The notes below the pieces were generated by a model, which saw only the letters and a program-made list of their open reading frames with translations, ran no database searches and had not been told where the DNA came from. Shown here one piece after another: positions 48,764 through 57,621 of a stretch of 64,000 nt of DNA (position 1 is its first letter; every line of letters begins with the position of its first letter). This stretch comes from Candidatus Bathyarchaeota archaeon (GTDB lineage: Archaea > Thermoproteota > Bathyarchaeia > Bathyarchaeales > Bathycorpusculaceae). The DNA is taken from NCBI GenBank assembly GCA_963715865.1, contig OY970280.1, forward strand, positions 2,048,001 to 2,112,000. The letters are read 5' to 3'. Made by a program: the position numbers and the translations under genes.

Positions 48764-48871
48764 AGTCAGTTCACGGTCTATAGTGAATAGCGAGTGGTTT
48801 GATTAATTAAAGTTTATCAAGCTATTCGTTTTGATTTCAGTTTAAATTTTTTAATCCAATGAAAAATAAAT

Positions 48872-48899
48872 TGGAAAGCCGGGGTTGATTTGAACCCCT
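48872..48899 (-). pseudogene. Decayed tRNA 3'-end-like sequence
   Basis: Minus strand AGGGG-TTCAAAT-CAACC-CCGGCTT-T-CCA has tRNA T-loop/acceptor/CCA spacing but a mispaired T-stem. Confidence 0.35.
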
Positions 48900-48970
48900 G
48901 CCAGAGTGAGGTATCACCTGAACAACCTTTATTTTTTCCAGTGTGCTCTCCCTGCGCTGATATTAGATTA

Positions 48971-49192
48971 CTATTTTCCCATGACTTTTCTAGTAGCGAT
49001 CTCAATGTCTTTCGCTTTAATGGTTTTTCTTCGGGCATGCATAGCATAATCAAGTGCTTCTTTAGCAATCTTAACGCCAATCTCCTCGAGAACGTTTGCA
49101 AGCTCCTTCGCTGCTGCTTCACTCACCCTGTCTGCTCCAGCTTTCTTACATAATCTATGCATTGGAGCCACAGCTATTACTAATTCGTTCAT
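48971..49192 (-). CDS. Archaeal histone, copy 2 (variant)
   Basis: 65/73 aa identical to copy 1. Confidence 0.93.
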   Translation of the reverse strand: MNELVIAVAPMHRLCKKAGADRVSEAAAKELANVLEEIGVKIAKEALDYAMHARRKTIKAKDIEIATRKVMGK

Positions 49193-49610
49193 ATCGACTT
49201 CTCCGCAGCCTCTTTTTCTTTTTAAAGCAATATTTAACCTTTGTTATCGCTTTTTCCTCTAAATTAGAAAGCAACATCTTCTTTTTTTGTTTCTAAATTG
49301 ACTCATGTAAGGCTTTTTAGCTCCAAATTACAAGCTATTCGAAATGGAACCATTTAACTGAATAAGAAAGATGCCCTGATTCCCATATTATTTACATTCC
49401 GCTTACGCAATTAATAATTTCTACCTCTGCATCAATTATCATTCACTTCTGAATGGTTTGTCCAAGGCAAGCAATCGAAACCCAGACTCTATTAGAGATT
49501 TCATGGCTTAATTCTTGCGATTTCAATTAAAGAGCCTCAAATACAGCCATTGGCTTTAACAAATTATAAATACAAATTACTGACATATACAAAATCCCGA
49601 GGTTATATCA

Positions 49611-49667
49611 GTGGCGAAGAAACCAGTTAAGAAAGCAGCGAAGAAAGCTCCGGCAAAGAAAAAGTAA
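49611..49667 (+). CDS. 18-aa Lys/Ala/Pro-rich micropeptide MAKKPVKKAAKKAPAKKK
   Basis: GTG start, GAGGT SD at 49599-49603, TTATAAAT at 49564-49571, T-rich tract downstream. Confidence 0.7.
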   Translation: MAKKPVKKAAKKAPAKKK

Positions 49668-49838
49668 AACCTCGGCGTAGGCACATTTACTTCTCTTTTT
49701 TTTCTTTTCTAACGAGATCACTAATCAAAATTTTTAAGCTACAAAGCTAACTATTGTGCAGGTTAGCTATAGCTCTCCCCTGCACTGAAAGGCTTTTGCC
49801 ATTTGCCTTCTATTGGCATCTTCAGCCTATGGCTAATT

Positions 49839-50015
49839 ATGCTTGATTTAACTAGACCTTGTGATGCTTGCGGAAAGATGATTGGTGGCGGCTTCAGGTG
49901 TTGTCCTAAATGCCAAATTTACTTCTGCTTTCTATGCTCATATGAACTAATGTGTAGCCAAAAGAAGTCCCCACTGAAGTGCCCTATGTGCGGTGGAAAG
50001 CTTCTATATCCTTAA
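49839..50015 (+). CDS. Small Cys-rich zinc-finger protein
   Basis: CDAC...CCPKC...CFLC...CPMCGG. Confidence 0.7.
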   Translation: MLDLTRPCDACGKMIGGGFRCCPKCQIYFCFLCSYELMCSQKKSPLKCPMCGGKLLYP

Positions 50016-50117
50016 AGCAGTATTTTAGCCTAGTTTTCATTGGTGGGTCGACAAGATTCAAAATGTCAGTAGCAAAAGTGAGATAACCTTAAGAGCTAAA
50101 AATATCGAGTTATTGAT

Positions 50118-51158
50118 ATGCAAGAAAAAGAAGGCTCACGCGAACTTTTTATCTCTTATTCAACTGAAGATAAAGAATCAATTGCTAGACCCGTTGCTAA
50201 CGCATTAGTTAGGCAAGATTTTTCTGTTTGGTTTGATGAGTTTGAACTAAAAATTGGAGATAGCATTCGTGAATCAATCGATAAGGGGCTATCCCAATCT
50301 TCTTATGGCGTTGTGATTTTAAGCCCAAGTTATTTCGAAAGATATTGGACAATGGCTGAATTGAATGCCTTGGCAGCTCGTGAGAGCAATGGTAAGAAAG
50401 TAATCCTTCCTGTTTGGCATAACGTGGATAAAGATTACGTTCTGAAAAAGTCTCCTCTATTAGCAGATAGGTTTGCTGCTCGTTCCTCAGATGGAGTTGA
50501 AAACATAGTGCGAATGATTTCTGCTAAAATTAGGAAGGATGCCCCCGGTACAGTTATGGCTGAAATGGAAGGCATTCTTAGTGCTTTAGAAAATAAAAAA
50601 ATAGAAGAAATGAAGCAAGTAATTTCACAGGAGGATTTCGCCAAATTAAGAAAAGAATATAGAAATGTGCTTTGTGGCATAGGCTTTTTTGATATTAGTC
50701 CTACACCATCCAACATTAACATTTTTAGGTATTTGAGAGAGGCTATCGTTAATCGACCTGAAAACGAAGCTAAGGCGCTTTTTGAAGTTCTCTTAGAGTG
50801 GTATGTTGAAACGACAACCCCTTTTTCGAATGAGATGCTGTTGGAAATCTTTTCGGGTTTGGTTAAATTGCCTTTTGCCAAGGATGCTGTTAGGGAGAAG
50901 AAATTCTCAAAGTTGTTTGTTACCGAATTTGGGAAGAGTCATAATTGGGATAGGGCACTCATAACAACTCAAATTCTAGTTAATATTCAATCATTACTGT
51001 CTAAAAGCGAAAAAGCGAGAATCGTCGAATATATAATCTCTAATGATCAAATATACAGTTCATATGCAGCAAAAGGTTACTTGCAAAAGCTTCTGGATTA
51101 TTTTGAGGGCGATGTTGATCCGGGAAGACTTGATTCAGCAAGGAAATCGCTTGGATAG
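50118..51158 (+). CDS. TIR-domain protein with helical (ARM/HEAT-like) C-terminus
   Basis: LFISYS..D, VWFDEFEL, WTMAEL (catalytic Glu), ILPVWH. Confidence 0.9.
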   Translation: MQEKEGSRELFISYSTEDKESIARPVANALVRQDFSVWFDEFELKIGDSIRESIDKGLSQSSYGVVILSPSYFERYWTMAELNALAARESNGKKVILPVWHNVDKDYVLKKSPLLADRFAARSSDGVENIVRMISAKIRKDAPGTVMAEMEGILSALENKKIEEMKQVISQEDFAKLRKEYRNVLCGIGFFDISPTPSNINIFRYLREAIVNRPENEAKALFEVLLEWYVETTTPFSNEMLLEIFSGLVKLPFAKDAVREKKFSKLFVTEFGKSHNWDRALITTQILVNIQSLLSKSEKARIVEYIISNDQIYSSYAAKGYLQKLLDYFEGDVDPGRLDSARKSLG

Positions 51159-51271
51159 ATACTGTCGGAAAAAGTTTGTGCAATCAAATCTTGATTCAAT
51201 AGCAAAGTTTATTTTTAAAACCGCTGGGGTAGCCATTTGTTAGGAACTTATTGCATCGTTCTTGATTGTTG

Positions 51272-51955
51272 CTATTCAAAATTCTTGTATTTTCGAATGT
51301 AGTTACATAGCTCATAGATTTCACGACTATATACTAGACAGTTGTAAACGTCACATTCGTTTTTCCGAAAATATTGTAGAGCATGCTCCAAACTCTCTTC
51401 AGGTGGCAATTCACCGTTAGCTCTTAGGGTATAGAAGTATTGTCCTTTTCCATCAAACCAGAATTCCTCAACTTGAGGTTTATATATTAAACCGAATTTG
51501 CTGTATGTAGAAAGAGTTCCAAGCTCTACTACTATGTACTTTTCCGAATCCATTTTCCCAAGAACATCAACTTTATTGCCACCATAAAACCATTCTTCAA
51601 TTTGAATTTTATCAAAAGGAATTCTTTTGTATTTATTTAAGCAATGTATAGCCTGATGCAGGTTTTCATGACTACCTTGCTTTATAGACCCATCTTTGAA
51701 ACCCCTAGATTGAGGAGTCTCCCAATAACCACAATCATAAACGGTTCGTGAGCTATCATTGTCTTTTCTTTTCTTCTCGACAATCTCACTAATGAATGAA
51801 ATAGAACTTATCTTCCAATATTGTTTCCTTACAATCTTACTTAACCATTCGATGTAGCATGGTGTAAGACGACAATCCCATCCAATATCAAAAATTTGTA
51901 TTATTGCATCGTGATTATTCTTTATGTTAGCTGTTCCCATGTTGGTTATTTTCAT
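51272..51955 (-). CDS. Hypothetical protein with possible PD-(D/E)xK nuclease-like C-terminus
   Basis: HENL...IEEW...KVDVLG...YIVVELGT. Confidence 0.65.
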   Translation of the reverse strand: MKITNMGTANIKNNHDAIIQIFDIGWDCRLTPCYIEWLSKIVRKQYWKISSISFISEIVEKKRKDNDSSRTVYDCGYWETPQSRGFKDGSIKQGSHENLHQAIHCLNKYKRIPFDKIQIEEWFYGGNKVDVLGKMDSEKYIVVELGTLSTYSKFGLIYKPQVEEFWFDGKGQYFYTLRANGELPPEESLEHALQYFRKNECDVYNCLVYSREIYELCNYIRKYKNFE

Positions 51956-51959
51956 ACTA

Positions 51960-51975
51960 TGCAGATTTAAGACTT
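51960..51975 (-). promoter_or_regulatory. 16-bp repeated promoter-like module AAGTCTTAAATCTGCA, copy 1
   Basis: Identical at 52354-52369; one mismatch at 53228-53243. Confidence 0.6.
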
Positions 51976-52321
51976 ATTGCCACCAATGCTTTTTCGGTTC
52001 AATAAAGAGAACTCTGTCATTTTGCGTTAATTCGCAAACCTTATTCAAACCGTATTTTTCGACTTTCACTTCATAAGAGCCCTCTGCAAGTTCAGCAGTT
52101 ACGTTACCATTATTGTCGGTATTCATCGAGAGTATCAACTTTTTAAATGGAGTTCCATTTTTGAGATTTTCAGCCCATTGTTTGAGCGTTATTGGTGTCT
52201 TTTCCAATCTGAAAACTTTAACGTTAACATCCTTGATTGGTTTATTTCCTTGAAAATTCACCACTCTTACAACAATCACATAAGTCTTTTCTAAAGCGAC
52301 AGCAACTTCTTGTGTGTCCAA
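51974..52321 (-). CDS. Small beta-sandwich (carboxypeptidase-regulatory/transthyretin-like) protein
   Basis: VVRVVN..GNKPIKDVNVKV...TDNNGNVTAELAEGSYEVKVEK. Confidence 0.7.
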   Translation of the reverse strand: MDTQEVAVALEKTYVIVVRVVNFQGNKPIKDVNVKVFRLEKTPITLKQWAENLKNGTPFKKLILSMNTDNNGNVTAELAEGSYEVKVEKYGLNKVCELTQNDRVLFIEPKKHWWQ

Positions 52322-52353
52322 TGTAAAACCCTGAATAATTTTATTCTGTAACT

Positions 52354-52369
52354 TGCAGATTTAAGACTT
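52354..52369 (-). promoter_or_regulatory. 16-bp repeated promoter-like module, copy 2
   Basis: Identical to 51960-51975. Confidence 0.6.
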
Positions 52370-52691
52370 TTGAACAGAGGATCGGTTAACTCATAGCTGG
52401 CTGAATGCGTCCCTCTTAACGGTTGGATTGCGTGCGACAACAATAAACTTTTCCCAATGTTTAAGCCATTGGTCGCTGATGCTAAAAGTTTATCGTTGGC
52501 GCTTAATTTTCAACGCATCAACAAAAAAAATTACATAGCGGTTCTTGACTGCGTTGCCCTCACTCAAACGGGCAATAAACAAGAACTAAATGAGCGGACT
52601 CGCAAGACCGCGCATTTGAGCTGTCTTGACAGCTCCTCGTAAAATTATTAAGCAAAAGTTCTTTCTGGCATCTCTTTTTTGCAAGAAAGAG

Positions 52692-52750
52692 TGCTTAGGT
52701 TGGCGTTCGTGCGAAGCGGGCGAAGCCCGCTGAGCCTTTCCTTGTTAGCA
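52692..52750 (+). other. 59-bp attC-like imperfect palindrome
   Basis: TGCTTAG...GTTCGTGC...GCGGGCGAAGCCCGC...GCTGAGC...GTTAGCA. Confidence 0.3.
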
Positions 52751-52849
52751 TAAATACAAAACTTCACGTTTTGCTTAGAACTGAGATAATAAACTTGTTA
52801 ATTTTCAGAGCCAACGCTACTTAATCGATAGTATTAGATTTGAAGCTCA

Positions 52850-53056
52850 TCATCTGCAGAAGTATTCTAGTGGAGCATACCAGTAGACCGTGAATGTTTT
52901 TTTGCAATCTTGGTTTTTGCACCTTACTTTCTTTTGAATGATTTTGCCATGGGAACCTTTTTGTGTTGGCTTTGCTGATGAGAATGCTGAGTGGAGTTTA
53001 TCAGGCGCTTCGACTTCAAGGATTTCATTGCAGGATGGGCATTCAAGAACAGCCAT
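52850..53056 (-). CDS. Small zinc-ribbon protein
   Basis: CPSC...CKNQDC; own AT-rich promoter. Confidence 0.75.
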   Translation of the reverse strand: MAVLECPSCNEILEVEAPDKLHSAFSSAKPTQKGSHGKIIQKKVRCKNQDCKKTFTVYWYAPLEYFCR

Positions 53057-53227
53057 AATGCACCATCTGTATTATTAATACGCTGAACTTTATTATAAAT
53101 CCTGATGTTCTCGGAGGAATGTATTTTCGTTTGTTTTGGTTCTTGTTTCTGAGCCAGAAAGCGCCTGTTCCAACGTGCTTATGCGTCTTTCTAAGGATTT
53201 GAGTGCTTTTTGGCTATTTCTATGCTG

Positions 53228-53243
53228 TGCAGATTAAAGACTT
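53228..53243 (-). promoter_or_regulatory. 16-bp repeated promoter-like module, copy 3 (one mismatch)
   Basis: TGCAGATTAAAGACTT on the plus strand. Confidence 0.5.
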
Positions 53244-53330
53244 TTTAATTAGGCAAAAAACCAAAAACGCCCAAGAGGCAGGAGCTATATTGGCTTAAAA
53301 AAGAAACAATTTTGATGCAAAGTTCTTACA

Positions 53331-53537
53331 TCATCTTGCGAGAACTCTCTTTACTACTGGCGGTTTCGTCTTCTTTAAAACTCTGTATCCGCATACGATA
53401 CATTTGATTTCGCCGCCTCTCTCATCAATGTTTTCGCCCATCGTGGTTGCTCCGCACCGAAGGCACTCGTAAGATTGATTTCCTCCCAAATTTCTACGTG
53501 GGCTTCTACCATATTCGAACATGTTCAAATTTTCCAT
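53331..53537 (-). CDS. rpoP: RNA polymerase subunit P (Rpo12) homologue
   Basis: YECLRCG...GGEIKCIVCGYRVLKKTKPPVVKRVLAR; start set at MENLN. Confidence 0.82.
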   Translation of the reverse strand: MENLNMFEYGRSPRRNLGGNQSYECLRCGATTMGENIDERGGEIKCIVCGYRVLKKTKPPVVKRVLAR

Positions 53538-53574
53538 TTTTTTCATATCATTACTTAAGCAATTATTTACCATC

Positions 53575-53697
53575 CTACTTATGCCTACCTTTCTTATACT
53601 TCCCCATGCCACAATCAAGACACTTAACGACATCTTCATCTTCTTCAAGGCGAGTGCTACCACAATAAGAACACCTTGGACATAAAACGTTATTCAA
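53575..53697 (-). CDS. 40-aa TFIIB/TFB-type zinc-ribbon micropeptide
   Basis: Manual translation MNNVLCPRCSYCGSTRLEEDEDVVKCLDCGMGKYKKGRHK (TTG start). Confidence 0.65.
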   Translation of the reverse strand: MNNVLCPRCSYCGSTRLEEDEDVVKCLDCGMGKYKKGRHK

Positions 53698-53737
53698 TTT
53701 TTTCTCTGTTGTTATTTGGCTTCACTCTTTGTAGTTG

Positions 53738-53878
53738 TTATTTAGTTTCACCCTTCTTCTTGGTGTCCGTATAGGTTTTCTTTTTCACTTTCTTTCTAAT
53801 CGGGCAATTAAGTCGAATACTCGATTTGCACCTGCGACAGTTCTTAACTAAACCTGCTCTATATTGACACATTTTCAT
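53738..53878 (-). CDS. 46-aa basic Cys4 micropeptide
   Basis: MKMCQYRAGLVKNCRRCKSSIRLNCPIRKKVKKKTYTDTKKKGETK; GAGGT SD; ATGA overlap with upstream ORF. Confidence 0.6.
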   Translation of the reverse strand: MKMCQYRAGLVKNCRRCKSSIRLNCPIRKKVKKKTYTDTKKKGETK

Positions 53879-54039
53879 TTACCTCTTTTCTCATGTTTAC
53901 ACTCATTGCTCTTATGTTTATACTCATTGCTTTTTTTAGCTATGAAGCATTCGTATTCTGGATAGTGACCGTTCCGCATCTTCGGGTTAACTGAACAAGT
54001 CTTAAAAGTGTGGCAGTTAGGACATATTCGTTTTATCAT
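53875..54039 (-). CDS. 54-aa Cys-rich micropeptide
   Basis: MIKRICPNCHTFKTCSVNPKMRNGHYPEYECFIAKKSNEYKHKSNECKHEKRGK; AGGTGA SD. Confidence 0.65.
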   Translation of the reverse strand: MIKRICPNCHTFKTCSVNPKMRNGHYPEYECFIAKKSNEYKHKSNECKHEKRGK

Positions 54040-54060
54040 TTTTTTCACCTGCCTACCTTT

Positions 54061-54240
54061 TCACCTAAAATTTAATGAGTTGCTTAAATTTTCTCGGAAA
54101 ATGAAGGCTTCACCTTGACCTTTTAACCAGCGTTGAAAATATTTATTTTTGCCTTCAAGCCATCGTTCAACTTCAGATTGTTGCTCCAGAATGGCTCTAT
54201 CTGGGATTTGCGCCTCAATTAAGTCACTATTTTGTTCCAT
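54061..54240 (-). CDS. 59-aa micropeptide, first gene of the micro-ORF operon
   Basis: MEQNSDLIEAQIPDRAILEQQSEVERWLEGKNKYFQRWLKGQGEAFIFRENLSNSLNFR; TATA about 20 nt upstream. Confidence 0.55.
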   Translation of the reverse strand: MEQNSDLIEAQIPDRAILEQQSEVERWLEGKNKYFQRWLKGQGEAFIFRENLSNSLNFR

Positions 54241-54259
54241 GACTTACGTACAAGGAGGA

Positions 54260-54276
54260 TATTTAAATAGTTTTTG
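54260..54276 (-). promoter_or_regulatory. BRE/TATA promoter for the micro-ORF operon (leaderless)
   Basis: CAAAAAC-TATTTAAATA on the minus strand. Confidence 0.55.
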
Positions 54277-54508
54277 AAACGCTCACTTTGATAAATTAAA
54301 GTTTATTTATGGTACAATACAATGACTATATTAGGCTTAAACGTTTTAGAAGTGGTTTTTGTTGCCTAGCCAGAAGAACTCCCAATTCAACATAACCAGC
54401 GGCATGGTGCGGGGGGACCAGCGGAAAAGCCACTTAAAACTTATCTGGTTGAGGAAAGAGAAAATTTCGTGTTTATCGATTTATAGAAGATAAGCAAAAA
54501 AGAAAATA

Positions 54509-55087
54509 TTATTTTTCTTGTTCCAGTTCTATTCGGCATTCGTCACAGATGTTTTGTCCGTTTCGTTCCATCAAGTTTTCAGAGTACATGTTGCAGCGGT
54601 CGCAGTATCCAGAGAGAGGAACCTCTTCAGTTTCTTCAGTTCGGGCAGCGCCTTCGATACGTGACTTTTCCTGGATCATCTCTATTAGTTCAGGCATTAC
54701 GCCTAGGATGTCTTTGCTTGAGATTATTCCGACAAGGTTGCCTTTGTAAATCACGCCGAGCCGTCTAATGTCCAGCCTGTTCATTCTTCGAGCTGCTTCA
54801 CTTATTGTTGCATCAGGTTCAATTGTTACCAATGGGGTTGTCATGATTTCTTTGGTATTAACTGTATCAGGCTTGAGGTTTTTAGCTAAAACCCTAATCA
54901 CCAAGTCTCGCTCGGTAATAATGCCTATTGATTTTCCAGCTTTATTCGTGACTATTACGCAGCCTAAATCGTTTTTATCCATAACAACGGCTGCTTTGTT
55001 TGAAGTTTCATCTTCATTCATGGTTACAACTGGGCTGCTCATCACGTCTTTTACCAGCATTCTTGTTCTCAATCCAATTTCAGACAT
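54509..55087 (-). CDS. CBS-pair protein with C-terminal zinc ribbon
   Basis: VKDVMSSP, IGIITERD, CDRC...CDEC. Confidence 0.9.
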   Translation of the reverse strand: MSEIGLRTRMLVKDVMSSPVVTMNEDETSNKAAVVMDKNDLGCVIVTNKAGKSIGIITERDLVIRVLAKNLKPDTVNTKEIMTTPLVTIEPDATISEAARRMNRLDIRRLGVIYKGNLVGIISSKDILGVMPELIEMIQEKSRIEGAARTEETEEVPLSGYCDRCNMYSENLMERNGQNICDECRIELEQEK

Positions 55088-57333: not shown

Positions 57334-57621
57334 ATGACTCAAAACGCAGATGTTATCTTCGTCGGAAACAAACCTCCAATGAGCTATGTTCTGGCAATCA
57401 TAACAAGCCTCTCCTCAGGAACCCTCAAAGAAATCACTTTGAAAGCTCGAGGCCAAGCCATAACCACCGCTGTTGACGCCGCTGAGATAGCAAGAAACCG
57501 GTTCATAAAAGACCTTAAAGTTAGCAAGATCGCTATCGGAACAGCAGAGATGCCACCACGTGAGGGAGAGAGCAAGTCCAGAATGGTTTCAACGATGGAG
57601 ATAACGCTAAGCAAAAAGTAA
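57334..57621 (+). CDS. Alba paralogue
   Basis: IFVGNKPPMSYV, KARGQAITTAVDAAE, VSTMEI. Confidence 0.92.
   Translation: MTQNADVIFVGNKPPMSYVLAIITSLSSGTLKEITLKARGQAITTAVDAAEIARNRFIKDLKVSKIAIGTAEMPPREGESKSRMVSTMEITLSKK

Follow-up and report, generated by a model that had tools for sequence, protein, structure and literature searches.

A predicted N-extended Rpo12/RpoP paralogue and further small zinc-protein genes in a mosaic cluster at the edge of a degraded integrated element in a Bathyarchaeon

Archaea diversify transcription through extra copies of the factors TBP, TFB and TFS, and the core of RNA polymerase (RNAP) in archaea is, to our knowledge, regarded as fixed in composition. The closest described counterpart of the gene considered here is the archaeal core subunit Rpo12/RpoP (Rpb12/RPABC4; family PF03604), which is present in the solved structures 4qiw, 2pmz, 7ok0 and 8cro. 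Precedents for inhibitors of the archaeal enzyme are TFS4, a TFS paralogue turned RNAP inhibitor (PMC5715097), and the viral RNAP inhibitor RIP (PMC8448823). Moreover, small one-domain zinc-finger proteins are common in archaea and are often missed by annotation (PMC6562870, PMC10716476, PMC11241148). In the present work a stretch of 64,000 nucleotides, referred to as the window, was analysed; it is part of the closed 2.35-Mb genome of Candidatus Bathyarchaeota archaeon (GCA_963715865.1, contig OY970280.1, positions 2,048,001 to 2,112,000; with the genome labelled G000, G000:C1:2048001-2112000). The genome belongs to an uncultured lineage that is abundant in peat, and all genus-wide counts refer to 120 genomes of one peat/soil Bathyarchaeia genus. 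The analysis was centred on a cluster of five short open reading frames (ORF1 to ORF5) on the minus strand, which an earlier sequence-only reading of the window had described as an operon of micro-proteins. The last of them, ORF5, is a predicted paralogue of Rpo12, and the cluster as a whole is a mosaic located at the edge of a decayed element.

ORF5 (53331-53537, minus strand) comprises 68 amino acids when read from 53537 and probably 63 amino acids when read from Met6 at 53522. Its earlier description as an Rpo12 homologue held: it matched the NCBIfam RpoP model with an E value of 6.6e-8, the profile of its family matched the PDB entry 4qiw_P with an E value of 3e-8, and it has sequence signatures in common with the canonical RpoP of the genus. 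The four cysteines C25, C28, C46 and C49 (CLRCG and CIVCG; CxxC-x17-CxxC) are invariant across 9 paralogues and 13 canonical sequences and form the same ribbon pattern as in archaeal Rpo12. The basic C-terminal tail is retained as well (GYR-hLKK-x-[KR]PP-x-VKR), with mostly conservative differences from the canonical protein, and is like the YR(V/I)LKKxKPPVVKRV tail of Rpo12. In contrast to described Rpo12 genes, ORF5 is an extra copy beside canonical rpoP, carries an N-terminal extension and has a rewritten inter-knuckle loop (8 of the 12 positions of loop 30-41 differ from the canonical copy); furthermore, it is patchily distributed, lies in a mobile-element remnant and stands outside the conserved rpoP neighbourhood. 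Since ORF5 and the canonical copy share the genus signatures KCIxC and KPP, as opposed to KCTxC and RPP in other families, ORF5 arose from the genus's own rpoP. ORF5 is thus classified from its sequence as an Rpo12/RpoP paralogue derived from an in-genus duplication, with an N-terminal extension of about 17-22 residues that is predicted to be disordered.

Rpo12/Rpb12 chains are the best matches of ORF5 in sequence and also rank first in fold, the latter at values short of significance. In the AlphaFold2 (AF2) model the ribbon reached predicted local distance difference test (pLDDT) values of 70-83 and the N-terminus stayed below 50. The top Foldseek matches were the RNAP subunit P/Rpb12 chains 9bct_P, 7eu1_L, 5xog_L and 8cro_P with probabilities of 0.97-1.0, at E values of 0.04-0.1 and TM scores of 0.45-0.66, the domain being too small for significance. 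Codon 6 of ORF5 is start-capable (ATG, GTG or TTG) in 14 of 14 readable copies and codon 1 is not in the G115 copies; a product of 63 amino acids starting at 53522 is likely on this evidence. A 110-codon GTG frame across ORF5 (53663-53331) was rejected, being interrupted in a paralogous copy.

A location of ORF5 between Rpo2 and Rpo3 was also obtained by complex modelling, for which Rpo3, ORF5 and the 620 C-terminal residues of Rpo2 served as input with an alignment supplied for each. The complex scored 0.64 versus 0.30 for the best of 3 controls, with at least 85% contact agreement between runs and a partner pLDDT of at least 62; in the benchmark the mark was attained by 58 of 80 solved complexes and by 2 of 110 mismatched pairs. 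The modelled interface places ORF5 residues 52-68 against both Rpo2 and Rpo3. The sequence-only reading had proposed a check of the interaction with RNAP, and the model would agree with ORF5 occupying the position of Rpo12. Because RNAP structures that contain Rpo12 are solved, the pass may come from the predictor's recall of them; it reflects a likeness of ORF5 to known Rpo12 complexes, not binding or function.

The best reading of these data, which we hold to be reasonably probable, is that ORF5 would be an accessory, alternative Rpo12 subunit. In the proposed scheme, ORF3, ORF4 and ORF5 would be co-transcribed from a promoter of ORF3 and transcription would end at a T6 run behind ORF5, possibly with read-through into the three genes from an upstream integrase promoter. 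With its C-terminal tail the ORF5 protein would occupy the place of Rpo12 between Rpo2 and Rpo3; since the Rpo2 and Rpo3 genes are single-copy in G000, some of the polymerases would contain it instead of the canonical subunit, and the enzyme bearing it would expose a different loop and tail on its surface. The further-reaching proposal, that the genus maintains a second, N-extended Rpo12 in a subset of its polymerases, which would thereby have a surface of their own for assembly, regulation or defence, and that the gene moves from species to species by way of small cassettes and integrative elements, is speculative and at present rather doubtful. If true, it would be the first alternative composition of an archaeal RNAP core, with a parallel in principle in the paralogous subunits of plant Pol IV/V. 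If a maintained paralogue keeps the docking tail and alters the exposed parts, alternative polymerase subunits in archaea become a testable idea. No report of archaeal Rpo12 paralogues was found in the literature, in a search that was incomplete. The unusual feature of this locus is that an N-extended paralogue of a core RNAP subunit is maintained by selection and travels on cassettes.

Three RpoP-like genes are present in G000, namely the canonical gene, ORF5 and a further copy at genome positions 1247630-1247424. The canonical rpoP (53 amino acids, 2229702-2229541) lies in conserved synteny beside Trm5-like and Trm112-like genes and was found in 119 of the 120 genomes, whereas ORF5-type copies occur in about 15 of them at varying loci, unlike the single-copy core gene. 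This pattern can also be explained by a redundant duplicate that drifts to loss, is spread together with the neighbouring small genes and has no distinct role, or none. Such drift would account for the patchy occurrence and for three broken copies, in G046 (a stop and a Cys-to-Tyr change), G099 (frameshift) and G098 (fragment); likewise the N-terminal extension is nearly neutral, with a ratio of nonsynonymous to synonymous polymorphism (pN/pS) of 0.56-0.77, and the paralogue is changed at about one third of the positions compared with a canonical protein that is 94-100% conserved in the genus. Against drift, the zinc ribbon and tail (residues 23-68) show a pN/pS of 0.18 over 9 distinct intact copies, the four cysteines and the tail are retained in at least 12 species, and G000 and G115 hold two intact copies each. 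We consider drift unlikely, though it deserves to be kept in mind.

Several observations weigh against an accessory subunit and have to be set beside the preferred reading. The distribution in about 15 of 120 genomes together with the broken copies implies that the paralogue is dispensable. Identity to the canonical protein amounts to 14 of 22 residues at the modelled interface versus 16 of 24 elsewhere, and a conservation specific to the interface of ORF5 was thus not seen. The scores of ORF5 lie below the cut-offs of both family models (PF03604, 19.5 bits versus 24; NF001608, 32.3 bits versus 84); as the canonical rpoP of the same genome also stays below both (16.3 and 30.3 bits), these cut-offs do not discriminate in this lineage. 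No clear Shine-Dalgarno (SD) motif precedes ORF5 or the adjacent ORF4. In GTDB genomes 22 of the 35 ORF4 loci have no ORF5, and therefore the pair is not an obligate unit. Finally, in three loci with the same gene order as the window (G098, G099 and G122) ORF4 starts with CTG, not TTG, and no in-frame start is found upstream. G098 and G099 also have a truncated or frameshifted ORF5 there, and in G122 none was found after ORF4; the coincidence suggests a joint decay of the pair.

Another explanation would make ORF5, alone or with ORF3 and ORF4, a decoy or inhibitor that binds Rpo2/Rpo3 or assembly intermediates and blocks or poisons RNAP assembly, either as a weapon of the element or as a host shut-down switch. 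The position of ORF5 in G000, next to a TIR-domain gene in the remnant of an integrated element, and the retained docking tail would suit such a function, and a basal-factor paralogue turned inhibitor (TFS4, PMC5715097) and a viral inhibitor (RIP, PMC8448823) offer precedents. However, ORF4 and ORF5 stand in an ordinary chromosomal context in many relatives (near Alba, CDC48 and TBP genes in G097 and G123, and by a malate dehydrogenase gene at the second G000 copy), intact elements with the corresponding integrase do not carry the ORF4-ORF5 pair, and no sequence sign of a lost fold or of lost contacts was seen. The decoy function is quite improbable by our analysis. The expansion of archaeal basal-factor paralogues (PMC5715097; PMC8448823; PMC9501531) is like the present case in that a diverged duplicate occurs in an accessory or stress-linked context; it is unlike it in that those proteins are initiation or cleavage factors, whereas ORF5 is related to a structural RNAP subunit and is known here from sequence and model. 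The accessory-subunit reading fits, as context only, with the duplicated transcription and chromatin genes of the genome, as G000 contains 4 TBP-like and 4 Alba-like loci (tblastn) and 2 full TFB genes. Two of the Alba-like loci lie within the window (~57334-57615 and 2287-2544), and many small ORFs of the genome resemble the TFIIB ribbon below threshold.

The five ORFs of the cluster were all found at the positions and with the lengths given in the sequence-only reading, and the TATA-like box ATTTAAAT (54261-54268, minus strand, ~25 nt before the ORF1 ATG) and the SD motifs before ORF2 and ORF3 are also present. AGGTGA lies 6 nt 5′ of the ORF2 ATG, and in ORF3 the distance from GAGGT is 3 nt to the first ATG and 9 nt to the second; since the 16S rRNA of the source genome ends in GGATCACCTCCT, which is complementary to both motifs, reading them as SD sites is chemically sound. 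At least four cysteines are encoded in each of ORF2 to ORF5, and the 946 bp of the cluster hold 6 ATG-initiated ORFs of at least 40 amino acids versus 1.9 in shuffled sequences (P=0.006). At the default ORF cut of 60 amino acids, a listing would show only the frame containing ORF5 among the five. The T6 run (53302-53297, minus strand), located 29 nt past the ORF5 stop at the 3′ edge of the ORF4-ORF5 module, is the sole run of at least five T on this strand in the cluster and a candidate archaeal terminator.

On this layout the sequence-only reading had based the claim that one TATA drives five functional micro-proteins on a single polycistronic mRNA, as a dedicated transcription-modulating module. 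The ORFs are indeed co-directional and closely spaced, SD-like motifs precede ORF2 and ORF3, and no run of at least five T interrupts the sequence before the end of ORF5. The claim is nevertheless largely refuted by the comparative data and very improbable: ORF1 is what is left of an integrase gene, ORF2 lacks its start or is disrupted at most of its homologous loci and crosses with its tail the promoter of ORF3, the modules are separate and differently ordered elsewhere, and ORF4 did not prove TFB-like. The cluster is instead a mosaic composed of the integrase stump, the marginal ORF2, an ORF3 module and an ORF4-ORF5 module. Three of its small genes, ORF3, ORF4 and ORF5, merit annotation, and ORF1 and ORF2 do not.

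ORF1 (54061-54240, minus strand, 59 amino acids, free of cysteine) could be assigned by a protein search of the genus, in which its first 33-42 residues matched the beginning of long frames from G081 and G071. Residues 1-47 align Met1-to-Met1 with a protein of 493 amino acids from G081 (23 of 47 identical, E 2e-8), which contains a Phage_integrase domain (PF00589) at residues 152-336 with an E value of 7e-12. Upstream of ORF1 and of the intact integrase genes the common sequence CTATTTAAATA is found at equal spacing to the ATG. ORF1 ends after 59 residues and has no catalytic domain with the R-H-R-Y residues. Elsewhere (G115, G047/palsa_989) only its 3′ part is left, without a start, and it was not found as a conserved ORF in other genomes. 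ORF1 is consequently read as the promoter and the first ~35-47 codons of a dead tyrosine-integrase gene, a remnant and not a member of the tyrosine-integrase family. Because the stump comes with a homologous promoter, the single TATA is the promoter of the dead integrase gene. The two intact integrases whose N-terminus and promoter match ORF1 have 490-493 amino acids (L209, G081:C14:5517-6998; L210, G071:C7, 8476-9948) and a long C-terminal extension past the catalytic domain, and the genes downstream of them are small ORFs without known identity. Both elements were rejected as carriers of the ORF2-ORF5 cassettes, which they do not contain.

ORF2 (53875-54039, minus strand, 54 amino acids, with CPNC and further cysteines) is a weakly supported gene. 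Its first 37 codons are undamaged at ~4 loci (the window, G115, G098 and palsa_989); in G012 they have no start, in G071 they are rewritten, and other loci lack them. The N-terminal part shows a pN/pS of 0.57. In related loci the homology begins at query positions 146, 176, 216, 280, 285, 308 and ~360, a staggered pattern as left by progressive 5′ decay. The last ~20 codons (residues ~34-54) span a 21-nt tandem repeat with TATAAAC/TGTAAAC boxes (53889-53930, minus strand), which is kept upstream of every ORF3 copy, even where the sequence further upstream differs entirely, and is the candidate promoter of the ORF3 module. One unit of the tandem duplication is absent in the corresponding G115 copy. 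ORF2 is therefore regarded as a marginal ORF whose C-terminal third is a read-through of the upstream control element of ORF3. The ATGA shared by ORF2 and ORF3, which had been taken as support for translation, does exist; it belongs to the conserved start region TAAATGAAAATG of ORF3. As this region, including ATGA, is also kept in stand-alone ORF3 copies without ORF2, the overlap gives no evidence of translational coupling.

ORF3 (53738-53878, minus strand) encodes a basic protein of 46 amino acids, or 44 if the second ATG at 53872 is used. In the family alignment C14, C17 and C25 are invariant and C4 is nearly so; the four-cysteine pattern occurs in 17 of 17 sampled copies, which contain no indel or stop, and pN/pS is 0.29. 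A core paralogue is located in G000 at 493895-493755. This orphan family is small, with 11 clusters among 5.8 billion proteins and 20 representatives among 1.84 billion; it found no match in Pfam and NCBIfam and, in an Atlas feature search, only unnamed clusters at 0.80-0.84; the AF2 model (pLDDT 52.6) was unusable.

ORF4 (53575-53697, minus strand, 40 amino acids, TTG start) contains two CxxCG motifs (CSYCG and CLDCG), an acidic loop (EEDED) and a basic tail. Open frames of 45-56 amino acids with 47-100% identity were detected in 49 of the 120 genomes, and of the 35 GTDB loci 13 have an ORF5-type copy following ORF4; pN/pS is 0.40. Its earlier description as a stand-alone TFB-type zinc ribbon failed in the test with PF08271 (E 0.28, 11.2 bits versus a 29-bit cut-off, and no stretch above it): ORF4 is not among the 28 matches to this family at E≤1 in its own genome and, being stand-alone with 40 amino acids, has neither the B-reader/linker nor the cyclin-fold core of TFB. 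The best NCBIfam match, the C-terminal ribbon of TFS4 (17.8 bits, cut-off 120), was rejected as meaningless, and an hhalign comparison with the RpoP family reached a probability of only 61%. ORF4 is accordingly classified, by its cysteine spacing, as a generic CxxC-x13-CxxC zinc ribbon.

Conservation and pN/pS of ORF3, ORF4 and ORF5 lead to the rejection of a chance-ORF explanation, and the three are genuine genes for small predicted zinc proteins under purifying selection. For these three the earlier view of real small Cys-rich genes is thereby confirmed, as they recur in relatives with open frames and pN/pS values of 0.2-0.4; ORF1 and ORF2 are not conserved as genes. The very basic ORF3 and the ORF4 protein with its acidic loop and basic tail would probably bind nucleic acids or proteins, and they are linked to ORF5 by position only. 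The ORF3 and ORF4 families are confined to soil and peat Bathyarchaeia.

A sixth small gene, ORF6 (52850-53056, minus strand, 68 amino acids, CxxC...Cx4C), lies just downstream of ORF5, outside the span described earlier. It is 94-99% identical in G115, G123 and G094, a core paralogue is located at genome positions 949529-949738 (79% nt identity), and most genomes of the genus hold a copy with ~70-79% nt identity. The nearest described class of such small proteins is formed by the C(P)XCG micro-proteins of Haloferax volcanii. ORF4 and ORF5 are like these in having fewer than 70 amino acids and two CxxCG motifs each, and ORF2, ORF3 and ORF6 are small proteins of the Cys4 type, ORF2 and ORF3 without two CxxCG motifs. 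There is no sequence relationship to the Haloferax proteins, however, ORF3 contains no CPXCG, and zinc binding is a prediction here.

The cluster occupies the integrase-proximal end of an insertion between the pyrC and CBS genes. Homology to relatives on the pyrC side stops at 48817, and only 69-500 bp lie between this side and the CBS side (from ~54449-54510) in G123, G012, G094, G098 and G115, compared to 5.7 kb in G000. A 20-nt direct repeat flanks the additional DNA: the left copy TTTGATTAATTAAAGTTTAT (48798-48817) is native sequence just upstream of pyrC, and the right copy (54287-54306) is identical to it at 19 of 20 positions and is followed by native TTATGGTAC. The empty sites of the relatives contain a single repeat copy, followed by native sequence as after the right copy of G000. 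From the empty sites and the duplicated repeat it follows that 48818-54306 is an insertion of 5,489 bp (the island plus one repeat copy) with target duplication. Its G+C fraction is 0.35-0.39 versus ~0.44 in the flanks. The integration target is an intergenic, promoter-like sequence, and no tRNA or Rfam RNA was found as integration target or as hidden RNA gene.

The start of ORF1 lies 46 nt inward of the right repeat, and its frame runs into the island. No functional integrase is encoded there; full-length relatives exist elsewhere in G000, the best of them with 30-34% identity. From these features the element is interpreted as a degraded integrated mobile element. The sequence-only reading had considered a viral origin, and a mobile origin of the cluster is borne out by the repeat-flanked insertion, by the empty site in five relatives and by the integrase stump. 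Archaeal integrated elements include a type in which the integrase is intact after integration, as opposed to the split integrases of the SSV type. The present element is like those with a tyrosine integrase beside the att site in its terminal direct repeats, in the empty site of relatives and in the integrase start just inside the repeat, reading inward. It differs from them in that only ~35-47 integrase codons remain, in that the target is not a tRNA gene, and in its cargo, a cassette mosaic that also occurs at chromosomal sites in relatives. Within the insertion, a TIR-domain protein is encoded at 50118-51158 on the plus strand (PF13676, E 8e-22; its C-terminal half has no family match), and its neighbours at 51272-51955 and 51974-52321 gave no significant family match.

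Two arrangements of the small genes were distinguished among the relatives, related contigs being named as metagenome-assembled genomes (MAGs) of peat and soil Bathyarchaeia (palsa, fen, SPRUCE, Danish soils). In the type I layout, an Alba gene is followed by a gene for a zinc protein of 62 amino acids (Zn62), ORF4 and ORF5 (and in part ORF6), convergent with a CDC48 gene that is preceded by ORF3, and a TBP paralogue lies nearby. The type II layout, (integrase remnant)-ORF2-ORF3-ORF4-ORF5, is found in the window, G115, G012, G098, G099, G122 and palsa_989. In the tblastn maps ORF3 and ORF4-ORF5 each occur alone, and ORF2-ORF3-ORF4-ORF5 occur together, with staggered 5′ truncations. Between species the modules are 89-97% identical at the nucleotide level versus 78-87% for the flanking core genes, which points to recent exchange between species. 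ORF3, ORF4 and ORF5 are shuffled as cassettes among the species of the genus.

The ORF4-ORF5 module of the window (53295-53713, minus strand) has its second G000 copy at 1247388-1247808, a 421-bp duplicate with 95.5% nt identity. At this second locus (1247424-1248054) Zn62 (62 amino acids, CxxC...Cx4C) stands before the pair and the malate dehydrogenase gene (mdh) after it. Of the 35 ORF4 loci of the GTDB genomes, 16 have Zn62 ahead of ORF4. In G123 (C5:66000-80000, L050) and G097 (C7:306000-320000, L051) the conserved neighbourhood comprises Alba, Zn62, ORF4, the Rpo12 paralogue, CDC48 (722 amino acids) and ORF3, together with a zinc protein of 56-71 amino acids and a TBP paralogue of 186 amino acids, and thus forms a cluster of chromatin, transcription and small zinc-protein genes. 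Four contigs with ORF4 relatives (L098, L099, L104 and L106) carry the labels of Limnocylindrales, Sulfotelmatobacter, Nanoarchaeia and Cytophagales MAGs and are probably mis-binned Bathyarchaeia contigs.

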